DNA of 64,000 nt, from the sequence record OR192075.1, one strand, 5' to 3'. This document shows, piece by piece, positions 37,099 to 39,288 of this stretch. The notes beneath the pieces are model-generated. The model was not told the origin of the DNA and made no database searches. It saw only the letters and a list, made by a program, of their open reading frames with translations. The DNA comes from Escherichia phage MIZ6. The position numbers and the translations under genes are program-made. The number at the start of each line of letters is the position of its first letter. The first letter of the stretch is position 1.

Positions 37099-37290
37099 TT
37101 AGATTCCGGCGATCCTGCATAGAGTTCTTGTATTAGCACCAATAAGGATAGCATTAACGACAACCATTCCCCAATCAACCCACTGATTATTATAAATGCT
37201 AAACCCGTTTGCAAGACCAAATACAAGCATTCCGGTACACATACTCAGAGCAATAATCAACATCACGGTAAAACCAAATGCAAATCTCAT
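37099..37290 (-). CDS. small hydrophobic protein
   Basis: 63 aa, two predicted TM helices. Confidence 0.4.
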   Translation of the reverse strand: MRFAFGFTVMLIIALSMCTGMLVFGLANGFSIYNNQWVDWGMVVVNAILIGANTRTLCRIAGI

Positions 37291-37291
37291 A

Positions 37292-37558
37292 TTATTTTCC
37301 TTTTCTCTGTTTACGTTTATAAAAGTAATACATTACCTCATCGCGTCCGGTGATCCAACATGCTATGGCAGTAAACAGGTTTACAATTCCCAACACACCT
37401 ACTGACGCGGCGCTGTCAACAGACATAGGAACAGTAAAGGCCATAGCTAACATAGCAACGCCACAAATGACATTAAGCACCATTATAATAAGACCGAAGA
37501 AAACCATTGTCAATCCTCCGACACAAGAAAACCAACAATCACGCCAGTGATAAGACAT
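37292..37558 (-). CDS. small hydrophobic protein
   Basis: 88 aa, hydrophobic, basic C-terminus. Confidence 0.4.
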   Translation of the reverse strand: MSYHWRDCWFSCVGGLTMVFFGLIIMVLNVICGVAMLAMAFTVPMSVDSAASVGVLGIVNLFTAIACWITGRDEVMYYFYKRKQRKGK

Positions 37559-37701
37559 GATGCGCCGCTAATCAGACAACCCGCACCAAGTGATTCCCAC
37601 CAGATCAGAGAAGCGACAATAACACAGAATCCCCAGACTACCGCAATCACAACATAGGCAAGGGTCGCCCAAAACATATATTTGTTCATAATAAATCCCA
37701 T
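37510..37701 (-). CDS. small hydrophobic protein
   Basis: 63 aa, two TM helices; overlaps neighbours. Confidence 0.4.
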   Translation of the reverse strand: MGFIMNKYMFWATLAYVVIAVVWGFCVIVASLIWWESLGAGCLISGASCLITGVIVGFLVSED

Positions 37702-37874
37702 TCACCAAACAAATAAGAAAAAAGCCATATCAACAGAAACGAGGCAATTGATCCGGCAAGCAAAATGATATTAGAGAATCCGCCGTCTATCCAGGCGACA
37801 AAACAGAATACGCCAGTATAGAAGCATAAACCCATTACAAAGCATACTATAAGCAACCATAGACAAAACGCCAT
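37686..37874 (-). CDS. small hydrophobic protein
   Basis: 62 aa, two TM helices. Confidence 0.4.
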   Translation of the reverse strand: MAFCLWLLIVCFVMGLCFYTGVFCFVAWIDGGFSNIILLAGSIASFLLIWLFSYLFGEWDLL

Positions 37875-37934
37875 AGAAAGCCCTCCATCGAGATAAATTA
37901 GTGCGGGTAGGGGACTGCACTACCCGCTTTGTTA

Positions 37935-38093
37935 ATCAACGCAGAGCTTCTTCTAGCGCGATCCCAAACCATCCACAAACAACGCCCATACAGACAGCTA
38001 CAAGAAGATTCATTCTCTCTTTAGGGATCATTGCAATCATAACAACAACCATACAGAAAGCCATTACCATTGATGTTAACATTTGTTCAACCA
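37935..38093 (-). CDS. candidate small hydrophobic protein (52 aa)
   Basis: Hand-translated MVEQMLTSMVMAFCMVVVMIAMIPKERMNLLVAVCMGVVCGWFGIALEEALR; below the ORF-track cutoff; coordinates approximate. Confidence 0.3.
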
Positions 38094-38096
38094 TTA

Positions 38097-38435
38097 TCAC
38101 ACCTTTAAAGTCATAGACGCATAAACATTAATGCCAGGCCAGTTAGGATCGCAATTATACTCAACATCCCACAAATAAAGCGGTTTAGATGTATCAGCCA
38201 AGTTTTTAAAATCTTCTACCCACATTTCAAGGCTATATGATGGATAAACTAGGCTATCATATCCGCCGTAACGTTGGCCTACTGGTCGGTCAGTAAAAAC
38301 TACCTCAAGATCCGGTAATTCTTTTTCAAGGATAACCGCCAGCGCATAAATCAGACGGTCTTCCTTGTTACGCTGCCGTAGGACCGTTGTCAGTTGGGTT
38401 TTCTGGTTCACTAGCAAGCACCTCCACATTTTCAC
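38097..38435 (-). CDS. hypothetical protein
   Basis: 112 aa soluble ORF. Confidence 0.4.
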   Translation of the reverse strand: MKMWRCLLVNQKTQLTTVLRQRNKEDRLIYALAVILEKELPDLEVVFTDRPVGQRYGGYDSLVYPSYSLEMWVEDFKNLADTSKPLYLWDVEYNCDPNWPGINVYASMTLKV

Positions 38436-38688
38436 AGAATGAAATTTTCACAGACACAATTTTACCATAAGTGAAGAATGAATATACATTATCGAGATAT
38501 TCAACGTCACCTACAATCACATCAAACTGCGGATCAGCAACCGCCGCAACATATTCTACCAGTTCATCAAGAGAATGCAACTTAATTTCATCAATTCGAC
38601 TGTATTTTGTTGCATCTTTAATTTTAAAACCACGTTCTTTCAGCTTGTCAATCAGAATTTCACGCGGCGTTTCAAACAGTTTGCTCAT
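38368..38688 (-). CDS. hypothetical protein
   Basis: 106 aa; start uncertain because it overlaps the previous ORF. Confidence 0.35.
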   Translation of the reverse strand: MSKLFETPREILIDKLKERGFKIKDATKYSRIDEIKLHSLDELVEYVAAVADPQFDVIVGDVEYLDNVYSFFTYGKIVSVKISFCENVEVLASEPENPTDNGPTAA

Positions 38689-38709
38689 AATATAATCCTC
38701 ACATTAAAT

Positions 38710-38910
38710 CTAAAATTTGTTAACGACGAATTGCATAATTAGACTAATCATAAACATTGCAAACCAAGTATAAATGCAACAGATAAAAGCTACATACAAT
38801 TCAATCTGGTCAGAGAATACACCGGGTAAAAGCATTAGCAAAATAACAACAGTAAAGACGCTAGCGATACCCGCAACAAAACCAATATCATTTTTACTAA
38901 TCGTCATCAA
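38710..38910 (-). CDS. small hydrophobic protein
   Basis: 66 aa, two TM helices. Confidence 0.4.
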   Translation of the reverse strand: MMTISKNDIGFVAGIASVFTVVILLMLLPGVFSDQIELYVAFICCIYTWFAMFMISLIMQFVVNKF

Positions 38911-39116
38911 GTCACCGTTTTGTAAAGAAACACAATAAAATCCAAGACAAGAAAGACAGTGTAAATGATCATCGTCAAGACAGTAAACACTGTCAGATTT
39001 TCATCGTTAGTTAATTCATAGTCGCCCATCCATACAATAACAAGATATAGCATTGAAAGAATGGAAGCACCTACGAAGTTAAAAAACATATTCTTGAGCG
39101 TCATATTAACAACCAT
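38907..39116 (-). CDS. small hydrophobic protein
   Basis: 69 aa, two TM helices; stop/start overlap. Confidence 0.4.
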   Translation of the reverse strand: MVVNMTLKNMFFNFVGASILSMLYLVIVWMGDYELTNDENLTVFTVLTMIIYTVFLVLDFIVFLYKTVT

Positions 39117-39288
39117 CGCGGCTTAAGTCAACAGCAATTGCATACAGCATAATGAATATGCTAGCAGATCCAAGAATCAATGCACCGTCACATTTTGAAA
39201 CTCGCTCATCAAAATGCAACAGTATCCATCCGAGGATGTTAAAGGCGCACACCGCGCCTATATTATCTAACCAATTAATCTTTTTCAT
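39106..39288 (-). CDS. small hydrophobic protein
   Basis: 60 aa, two TM helices. Confidence 0.4.
   Translation of the reverse strand: MKKINWLDNIGAVCAFNILGWILLHFDERVSKCDGALILGSASIFIMLYAIAVDLSRDGC

Follow-up and report, generated by a model that had tools for sequence, protein, structure and literature searches.

Predicted early hairpin membrane proteins encoded by a cluster of small accessory genes beside the endolysin gene of a Krischvirus phage

Few components of T4-type phage genomes are as poorly understood as their small membrane proteins, and the small number studied so far (Imm, RI, and the holins) control entry, exclusion, and lysis. Here we describe eight small, very hydrophobic genes (m1 to m8, the mini-genes) on the minus strand at positions 37099–39288 of a 64,000-nucleotide (nt) stretch of Escherichia phage MIZ6 (sequence record OR192075.1), which lie directly upstream of the gene for an M15 L-alanyl-D-glutamate peptidase endolysin. 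This whole stretch, at its full length, is referred to as the window. It belongs to a Krischvirus genome (RB49 group, T4-like coliphage), with 100% identity to MIZ2 and MIZ3 across the 3.1–5.7 kb compared, and its 36600–42300 region is 95–99% identical to ~55 further Krischvirus genomes, among them RB49, phi1, JSE, and GEC-3S. Krischvirus phages are T4-type myoviruses. We find that the mini-genes are real genes and are accessory, and by analogy with described systems we think it probable that they encode early hairpin proteins of the inner membrane that form part of a T4-type hyperplastic region and act within the membrane.

The mini-proteins share the architecture of T4 Imm (83 amino acids (aa), Pfam family Imm_superinfect), a small early inner-membrane protein whose two transmembrane (TM) helices are joined by a short loop and which carries a short charged tail. 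They differ from Imm in having neither sequence similarity to it nor a Pfam match, in their genomic position, and in being known here from their genes alone. T4 Sp (spackle) is built from a signal peptide and a soluble periplasmic domain that inhibits the gp5 lysozyme, whereas the mini-proteins have only loops of 4–9 residues. The original prediction, which was made from the letters of the window, had listed superinfection exclusion like that of T4 imm and sp among the candidate roles and had proposed a comparison with the T4 proteins. Using blastp with T4 Imm, Sp, 61.4, and 61.1, we detected no similarity to any mini-protein (for Imm there was no hit with E < 5 and for Sp no meaningful hit), and the positive control, Dmd, gave 1e-17. 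Homologues of imm or sp were found neither at the syntenic sites of RB49 (uvsX–43 and 61–41) nor in the ~95 kb screened (~58% of the RB49 genome). The 61–41 interval of RB49 is occupied by a 47-aa open reading frame (ORF) with two TM helices, RB49p018, in place of sp.

A second point of comparison is with the ORFan genes of the hyperplastic regions (HPRs) of RB49 and phi1, for which early-promoter/PeSL cassettes have been described (Arbiol et al., 2010, PMC2839356; Comeau et al., 2014, PMC4122927). The mini-genes resemble these ORFans in lying between conserved modules, in having no database homologues, in having a repeated strong sigma-70-like cassette in front, and in differing among relatives by indels and replacements. 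By contrast, up to eleven genes follow one promoter here, rather than each ORFan having its own cassette, and no stem-loop stands next to the promoter at 39694. Membrane proteins are not mentioned in the context of the cassettes in the HPR papers.

The corrected gene models are given below, with the ratio of nonsynonymous to synonymous polymorphism (pN/pS) computed across 17 Krischvirus genomes.

37099–37290, minus strand: m1, 63 aa; RB49 ORF103c; phrog_15016; pN/pS 0.22
37292–37507, minus strand: m2, 71 aa, two predicted TM helices; RB49 ORF104c; phrog_15232; pN/pS 0.13
37510–37689, minus strand: m3, 59 aa, two predicted TM helices; RB49 ORF105c; phrog_16151 (59 positions); pN/pS 0.24
37686–37874, minus strand: m4, 62 aa, two predicted TM helices; RB49 ORF106c; GGAGG Shine-Dalgarno motif; phrog_19354; pN/pS 0.50
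37936–38094, minus strand: m5, 52 aa, two predicted TM helices; RB49 ORF107c; phrog_16035; pN/pS 0.24
38710–38907, minus strand: m6, 65 aa, two predicted TM helices; RB49 ORF110c; phrog_15379; pN/pS 0.60
38907–39104, minus strand: m7, 65 aa, two predicted TM helices; RB49 ORF111c; phrog_21837; pN/pS 0.25
39106–39288, minus strand: m8, 60 aa, two predicted TM helices (TMHMM, residues 7–26 and 36–53); RB49 ORF112c; phrog_16425; pN/pS 0.34

In ascending coordinates there are five mini-genes, two soluble conserved genes (s1 and s2), and then three more mini-genes. Small ORFs are present on the minus strand where the original prediction had placed them, and both of its groups, at least five consecutive ORFs and then three, were recovered; what it lacked are the two soluble genes between the groups and six more mini-genes beyond its coordinates. 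Its sizes of 63, 62, and 52 aa stand, but an ORF given as 88 aa is the 71-aa m2 and a second one given as 63 aa is the 59-aa m3. The 88-aa model for m2 was rejected on the grounds that the upstream extension is lost in divergent relatives and that a GGAGG Shine-Dalgarno motif fits the 71-aa start. For m3, nearly all records annotate 59 aa, the length of its PHROG profile. The longest possible ORF for m7 has 69 aa (to 39116), and the PHROG matches residues 5–69, leading to the 65-aa model. The m4 gene is missing from the MIZ2 and W115 annotations. Neighbouring ORFs had also been described as overlapping by a few codons, whereas the corrected genes abut, with stop-to-start spacings of −4 to +2 nt and a single gap of 61 nt between m5 and m4. 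The start of m3 overlaps the stop of m4 (ATGA), and the stop of m1 is 28 nt upstream of the endolysin start. Abutting genes of this kind are typical of translational coupling.

The clustering of small hydrophobic ORFs is far from random. Within the window, 14 of the 18 such ORFs lie in 5.1 kb, and in RB49 the interval ORF103c–124c accounts for 13 of the 20 novel ORFs with predicted TM helices (hypergeometric P ~5e-12, ~274 genes; Nolan et al., 2006). The density of these genes had been called unusual; this holds statistically within this genome. However, comparable runs of small ORFs with TM helices or signal peptides are also listed for other T4-like phages such as Aeh1 and RB43 (Nolan et al., 2006). 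Going by this listing, T4-like phages generally have such clusters in their variable regions.

The mini-genes also have the properties of coding sequences under selection. On the coding strand, T is found at 48% of second codon positions in the mini-genes versus 30% in the soluble neighbours. Variable sites among the 17 genomes are concentrated at third codon positions, and pN/pS of the mini-genes is 0.13–0.60 in frame and rises to ~1 or more when the sense frame is shifted either way. A low pN/pS is otherwise seen only in the antisense frame whose third codon positions coincide, as expected. The purifying selection to which the original prediction had looked as a check is therefore present. 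As a comparison, pN/pS is 0.07 for the endolysin and about 0.1 for the soluble neighbours. We then used more divergent metagenomic relatives (L018–L022), which were located through homologues of m2. Against divergent lineages, dN/dS is 0.14–0.38 for m1–m5, m7, and m8, and 0.5–0.7 for m6. These metagenomic relatives keep the gene order s3-m8-m7-m6-s2-s1-m5-m4-m3-m2-m1-endolysin and the gene sizes. In the closer divergent lineage, the mini-proteins have 67–90% aa identity versus 96–99% for s1, s2, and the further soluble protein s3. The mini-genes have Shine-Dalgarno motifs, and these and the start codons are conserved. Because there is purifying selection in frame and because order and sizes are retained in divergent relatives, the eight mini-genes are real genes, and they are less constrained than their soluble neighbours.

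That the mini-genes encode small membrane proteins, as originally predicted, is borne out by their hydrophobicity: the grand average of hydropathy (GRAVY) is 0.76–1.76, and a hydropathy scan of most of them gives two hydrophobic segments of 17–19 residues. TM boundaries were those published from TMHMM for the RB49 orthologues; those of m3 were set in the present analysis (ORF105c is not named in the published list). For m1, TMHMM predicts two TM helices, and the hydropathy scan gives one strong and one weaker segment. Each mini-protein consists of little beyond its two predicted helices. The connecting loops are acidic or neutral in seven of the eight, and the N-termini are neutral or basic. 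Clearly basic C-terminal tails occur only in m1 (+2, weak) and m2 (+5), and m3, m4, m5, and m8 have acidic C-terminal ends. By the positive-inside rule, this pattern indicates hairpins with both ends in the cytoplasm (N-in/C-in) and a minute periplasmic loop for seven of the eight, a topology that we infer from predictions. The loop of m5 is the only basic one, which suggests that this protein may have the opposite orientation. In m2, the tail GRDEVMYYFYKRKQRKGK (+5) and the second TM helix are near-invariant across lineages while the first TM helix drifts.

Among close relatives, individual mini-genes come and go. The m4 gene is frameshifted in an ECD7-like contig and in Whisky and has been deleted from ELT4. 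Indels of 1 nt are found in m7 (W115, JK32, and ELT4) and in m8 (FL04). Two allele classes of m5 have 83% nt identity in a background of 98%. A second allele of m6, with 33% aa identity, is found in JSE, phiS, Makalu_003, SSG23, Whisky, and the metagenomic relatives L019 and L020 (loci L005, L007, L008, L013, L016, L019, and L020). This allele usually comes without m7, the exception being L019, which has both, in genomes that are otherwise 95–99% identical. Because members are frameshifted, deleted, duplicated, or allele-swapped among phages that are 95–99% identical, the mini-genes are accessory genes. Relative to the window, insertions of ~264 nt occur in JK32 (L010, 1829–2524) and Skers (L015, 1926–2192). 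The JK32 insertion is a tandem partial duplication of m4 with a truncated 54-aa copy and a full copy, and that of Skers lies between s1 and m5; either could be a real duplication or an assembly artefact.

The mini-proteins are also ORFans. Every mini-protein matches only its own PHROG, each of unassigned function. No Pfam family, the Imm and holin families included, was matched at threshold by any mini-protein, and no lysis family in PHROGs was matched at E ≤ 0.01. In word-seeded searches, homologues of m1 and m2 were found only on Krischvirus-like contigs of 166–175 kb, and a profile hidden Markov model of m2 searched against 1.84 billion representative proteins returned only its own cluster and one fragment. 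Each mini-protein can on this basis be regarded as an ORFan, and for m1 and m2 this status was examined against very large protein collections. We also considered a tandem-duplicated family; all-against-all blastp revealed no paralogy among the 14 mini-proteins of the region, which include the six described below (best E = 0.17).

The eight mini-genes, s1–s3, the endolysin gene, vs.8, and vs.6 are predicted to form one early (sigma-70-type) transcription unit of ~4.1 kb. All genes surrounding the array are on the minus strand. The other features of this unit are the following, in the order of transcription.

39666–39694, minus strand: predicted early promoter (TTGACA-17-CATAAT) that heads the unit
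39297–39623, minus strand: s3, first gene of the unit, soluble, 108 aa, LPD25 domain (PF18840, E = 3e-14); RB49 ORF113c
38368–38688, minus strand: s2, soluble ORFan, 106 aa; RB49 ORF109c; 98–99% conserved; pN/pS 0.09
38097–38411, minus strand: s1, soluble ORFan, 104 aa, GTG start; RB49 ORF108c; pN/pS 0.11
36681–37070, minus strand: M15 L-alanyl-D-glutamate peptidase endolysin, downstream of the array in the unit; RB49 ORF102c; PF13539; pN/pS 0.07
35547–35571, minus strand: predicted intrinsic terminator after vs.8, a 41-aa ORF, and the vs.6/GrcA-like gene

The promoter at 39694–39666 corresponds to RB49 Pe:57746 (score 37.4; Nolan et al., 2006, Additional file 3) and is annotated as a promoter in GEC-3S. 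The terminator corresponds to the RB49 terminator at 53587–53607 (Nolan et al., 2006), and the RB49 list places no other early promoter between the two. The RB49 list contains no late promoter between 48.7 and 64.5 kb, and the late –10 element TATAAATA does not occur between 37099 and 39700. An internal promoter-like site at 37513–37485 (11/12) was set aside as a chance match, since divergent lineages do not keep it and the RB49 list lacks it. An Rfam scan of 35000–43500 found nothing. The promoter is part of a 61-nt cassette (39645–39705) with further copies at 40607–40667 and 42602–42662 (66–89% identity). These two copies are preceded by terminator hairpins (40709–40688 and 42689–42669), as in the PeSL type, and the 39694 promoter has no stem-loop.

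Read in the sense of transcription, the genes of this region are 57B, a 125-aa ORF, n6, dmd, n5–n1, four soluble ORFs, s3, m8–m6, s2, s1, and m5–m1, and after m1 the endolysin gene, vs.8, the 41-aa ORF, vs.6 (GrcA-like), nrdC.11, and further on regB, vs, tk, and rI. Based on the annotations of relatives, the wider gene order is rI-tk-vs-regB-...-endolysin-array-dmd-57B-57A-1-3-2. The array is between the vs/regB/vs.6–vs.8 block and the 57B-57A-1-3-2 block, which places it in a variable region with conserved core modules on either side. Of the soluble genes, s1 and s2, which separate the five-gene group from the three-gene group, overlap by 44 nt in different frames. Neither has a Pfam match, and sequence searches of the PDB gave a best E of ~1. 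Scanning IMG/VR with s2 returned one locus only, an ECD7-like genome. The s3 protein has 97–98% aa identity in divergent lineages. Its LPD25 domain is otherwise known from large polyvalent proteins of phages and conjugative elements.

Together, these data support the idea that the mini-proteins are early accessory hairpin proteins of the inner membrane. The course of events that we infer, from early timing to a specific role, would begin with transcription within minutes of infection from the sigma-70-type promoter at 39694–39666. The ~4.1-kb unit would carry the mini-genes together with the genes for the LPD25 protein, s1, s2, the endolysin, vs.8, and vs.6. Each mini-protein would insert as two TM helices with a short, mostly acidic periplasmic loop, N-in/C-in for seven of the eight. 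Because there is almost no extramembrane mass, the proteins would then act inside the bilayer, either by binding the TM segments of other proteins or by self-association. Their likeliest job would be to remodel or guard the host inner membrane early in infection, either through Imm-like superinfection immunity or by neutralising membrane-embedded host or defence proteins, and the release of the endolysin would be left to the canonical late T holin with RI. By analogy, superinfection immunity and inhibition of membrane-embedded host or defence proteins are both plausible; the latter had been suggested in the original prediction for host membrane proteins. A similar mode of action is known in concept from DicB, a tiny prophage protein that blocks phage entry through a resident inner-membrane protein, ManYZ (PMC6832061), and from bacterial small membrane-protein regulators (review, PMC12648545). 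The likeness is one of concept and is hypothetical here; DicB does not form a TM hairpin and has no sequence relationship to the mini-proteins.

Several points weigh against this interpretation. The early timing comes solely from promoter and terminator predictions, and in the literature on Krischvirus transcriptomics and proteomics and on screens of T4 small membrane proteins we found no expression, localisation, or phenotype data for these proteins. The higher dN of the mini-genes relative to their neighbours may reflect the tolerance of TM helices for hydrophobic substitutions rather than an arms race. The loss of m4, m7, and m8 shows that these genes are dispensable in the laboratory and possibly decaying. 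Finally, the array is co-transcribed with the endolysin gene by prediction, so that a functional link to lysis is conceivable, and the size of m2 (71 aa), its two TM helices, and its basic tail are typical of class II holins.

Six more TM mini-genes (n1–n6), which flank dmd, occupy 40859–42139 of the minus strand and belong to the next-but-two early unit.

40859–41077, minus strand: n1, 72-aa TM mini-protein; n1–n5 are RB49 ORF118c–122c
41074–41256, minus strand: n2, 60-aa TM mini-protein
41253–41477, minus strand: n3, 74-aa TM mini-protein
41474–41599, minus strand: n4, TM mini-protein of 36 or 41 aa; start ambiguous
41581–41778/41820, minus strand: n5, TM mini-protein of 65–79 aa; overlaps the end of dmd
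41768–41971, minus strand: dmd, between n5 and n6
41981–42139, minus strand: n6, 52-aa TM mini-protein; RB49 ORF124c

Dmd is an antitoxin against RnlA/LsoA. The genes that come after dmd in T4 are 61.4 and sp, whereas here dmd is flanked by TM mini-genes. Further upstream, a gene annotated as 57B/RNA ligase (~42700–43160) has a counterpart in relatives (L018–L021, ~330–800) with a precomputed Pfam match to Acb1 (PF23474). Acb1 is a family of anti-CBASS phosphodiesterases. The island would thus hold at least two counter-defence genes, dmd and, judging from the Acb1 family match, 57B, and these, together with the gene for the LPD25 protein (s3), are the island neighbours of the mini-genes. An exact TATAAATA is present at 40860–40867 on the minus strand, where the final codons of n1 and its stop spell it out just upstream of the terminator at 40709 and the promoter cassette at 40656. 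The RB49 list of late promoters does not include it, and it is maybe a chance occurrence (4 in the window versus 6 expected).

A bolder form of the interpretation, which we regard as tentative and unlikely, is that the two arrays (14 hairpins, 37099–42139) make up a modular, fast-turnover battery of intramembrane inhibitors, each of which hits the TM region of a different membrane protein. Candidate targets would be the TM effectors of abortive-infection and other defence systems, the DNA-entry machinery used by superinfecting phages, and transporters. The arrays share an accessory island with dmd, acb1 (57B), and the LPD25 gene. If this were true, the deep allele swaps of m5 and m6 and the loss and gain of genes would reflect an arms race inside the bilayer.

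It is quite unlikely that the mini-proteins are instead subunits of one hetero-oligomeric membrane assembly (a channel or scaffold), perhaps with s1 and s2. The tight coupling (−4 to +2 nt) and the gene order, which is fixed across divergent lineages, would favour stoichiometric co-production, and s1 and s2, which lie inside the array, are much more conserved (96–99% identity). However, members are independently lost, duplicated, or allele-swapped while their neighbours are kept, which is unexpected for obligate subunits, and the mini-proteins have neither paralogy nor a shared motif. Single-sequence AlphaFold2 models of s1 and s2 have low confidence (predicted local distance difference test (pLDDT) scores of 54–58) and give no structural inference.

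A role in lysis, in the form of holin/antiholin-like control, was the other candidate function in the original prediction, and we disfavour it. In this improbable proposal, a lysis cassette remnant or an accessory lysis control would be present: one or more mini-proteins, especially m2 or m1, would be a holin, pinholin, or antiholin acquired together with the M15 endolysin, and would control release of the endolysin or fine-tune lysis timing alongside T and RI. The array is directly upstream of the endolysin gene and predicted to be co-transcribed with it, and m2, two genes upstream of the endolysin, shares with class II holins and pinholins its size, two TM helices, and a strongly basic, near-invariant C-terminus (+5). 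The S protein of phage 21, an example of this class, has 68/71 aa, two TM helices, an N-in/C-in topology, and a basic C-terminal tail. There are also weak sub-threshold matches to holin superfamily III for m2 (Phage_holin_3_5, E = 0.029, 15 bits, cut-off 27) and n3 (E = 0.076), with 14–15 bits versus cut-offs of 27–28. By contrast with class II holins, m2 is predicted to be early rather than late, has no significant family match in Pfam or PHROGs, and coexists with a separate T holin. This canonical holin (RB49p254, 218 aa) is encoded elsewhere, at its T4-like position downstream of the tail-fibre genes, and rI is also present. The promoter of the unit is of the sigma-70 early type, with neither TATAAATA in the array nor a late promoter listed in the RB49 interval given above. 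Eight different hairpins far exceed the needs of a lysis cassette, and several of the mini-genes are lost in viable isolates.

The arrangement in other phages is also informative. Homologues of the M15 endolysin occur in the Bragavirus PM2 (55% identity) and the Pseudotevenvirus RB16 (48%), both Straboviridae, and in the Certrevirus POP17 (65%), and in all three the genes upstream of the endolysin are soluble. Because of this, the adjacency of the endolysin to TM mini-genes appears to be specific to Krischvirus, and a mobile cassette of the endolysin with upstream TM genes was rejected. Since the unit is of the early type, T holin and rI are elsewhere, and the upstream genes are soluble in three other genera, the mini-proteins are probably not a lysis system.

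The endolysin gene itself has a feature that bears on its link to the array.

37064–37101, minus strand: predicted hairpin over the Shine-Dalgarno motif and AUG of the endolysin gene (free energy −13.8 kcal/mol, with a modest z of −1.7)

The hairpin is kept in all 21 relatives, and in divergent lineages an A-to-G change lengthens the stem (−18.6). Its 5′ arm overlaps TcTAAATA (37103–37096), which matches the T4 late –10 element at 7 of 8 positions; no late promoter is listed here (Nolan et al., 2006). The arrangement resembles the translational control of T4 gene e. For that gene, early read-through transcripts are reportedly untranslatable and late transcripts are said to start inside the hairpin. 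The hairpin over the ribosome binding site appears to uncouple translation of the endolysin from the early transcript, and if control of the gene e type holds here, there would be no functional coupling between the endolysin and the early genes that precede it.

The last alternative, that the mini-genes are non-functional, being either ORFs that arise spuriously from a T-rich sequence or decaying passengers, useless to the phage, that recombination at promoter cassettes has brought along, is very improbable: certain mini-genes are frameshifted or deleted in isolates, pN/pS reaches 0.5–0.6 for m4 and m6, and several annotation pipelines skip m4 or m7, but the third-position excess and a pN/pS well below 1 are confined to the annotated frame and the expected antisense frame, lineages at dS 0.3–0.8 still have intact orthologues of unchanged length, Shine-Dalgarno motifs and start codons are conserved, and the second TM helix and tail of m2 are near-invariant.

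The gene cluster itself is already known. The mini-genes are RB49 ORF103c–107c and 110c–112c (RB49p103–p112), with orthologues in phi1, JSE, and GEC-3S (93–100% nt identity). The RB49 orthologues have been annotated since 2003, as hypothetical proteins, and Additional file 2 of Nolan et al. (2006) gives two TMHMM helices for seven of them by name; ORF105c is missing from that file and ORF106c is listed twice. In phage W115, all mini-genes except m4 are labelled 'putative membrane protein'. We found no paper that discusses the clustering of the mini-genes beside the endolysin gene, and the mini-proteins are not discussed by Arbiol (2010) or Petrov (2010). The present analysis adds corrected gene models, evidence for selection and turnover, the context of the transcription unit, the case against a role in lysis, and the examination of the ORFan status of m1 and m2 at very large scale.

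If the mini-proteins are early hairpin proteins of the inner membrane, as we favour, then eight predicted TM hairpins (fourteen with the second array) among counter-defence genes provide a compact target for deletion and expression screens. Such screens could uncover new mechanisms of superinfection exclusion or anti-defence.

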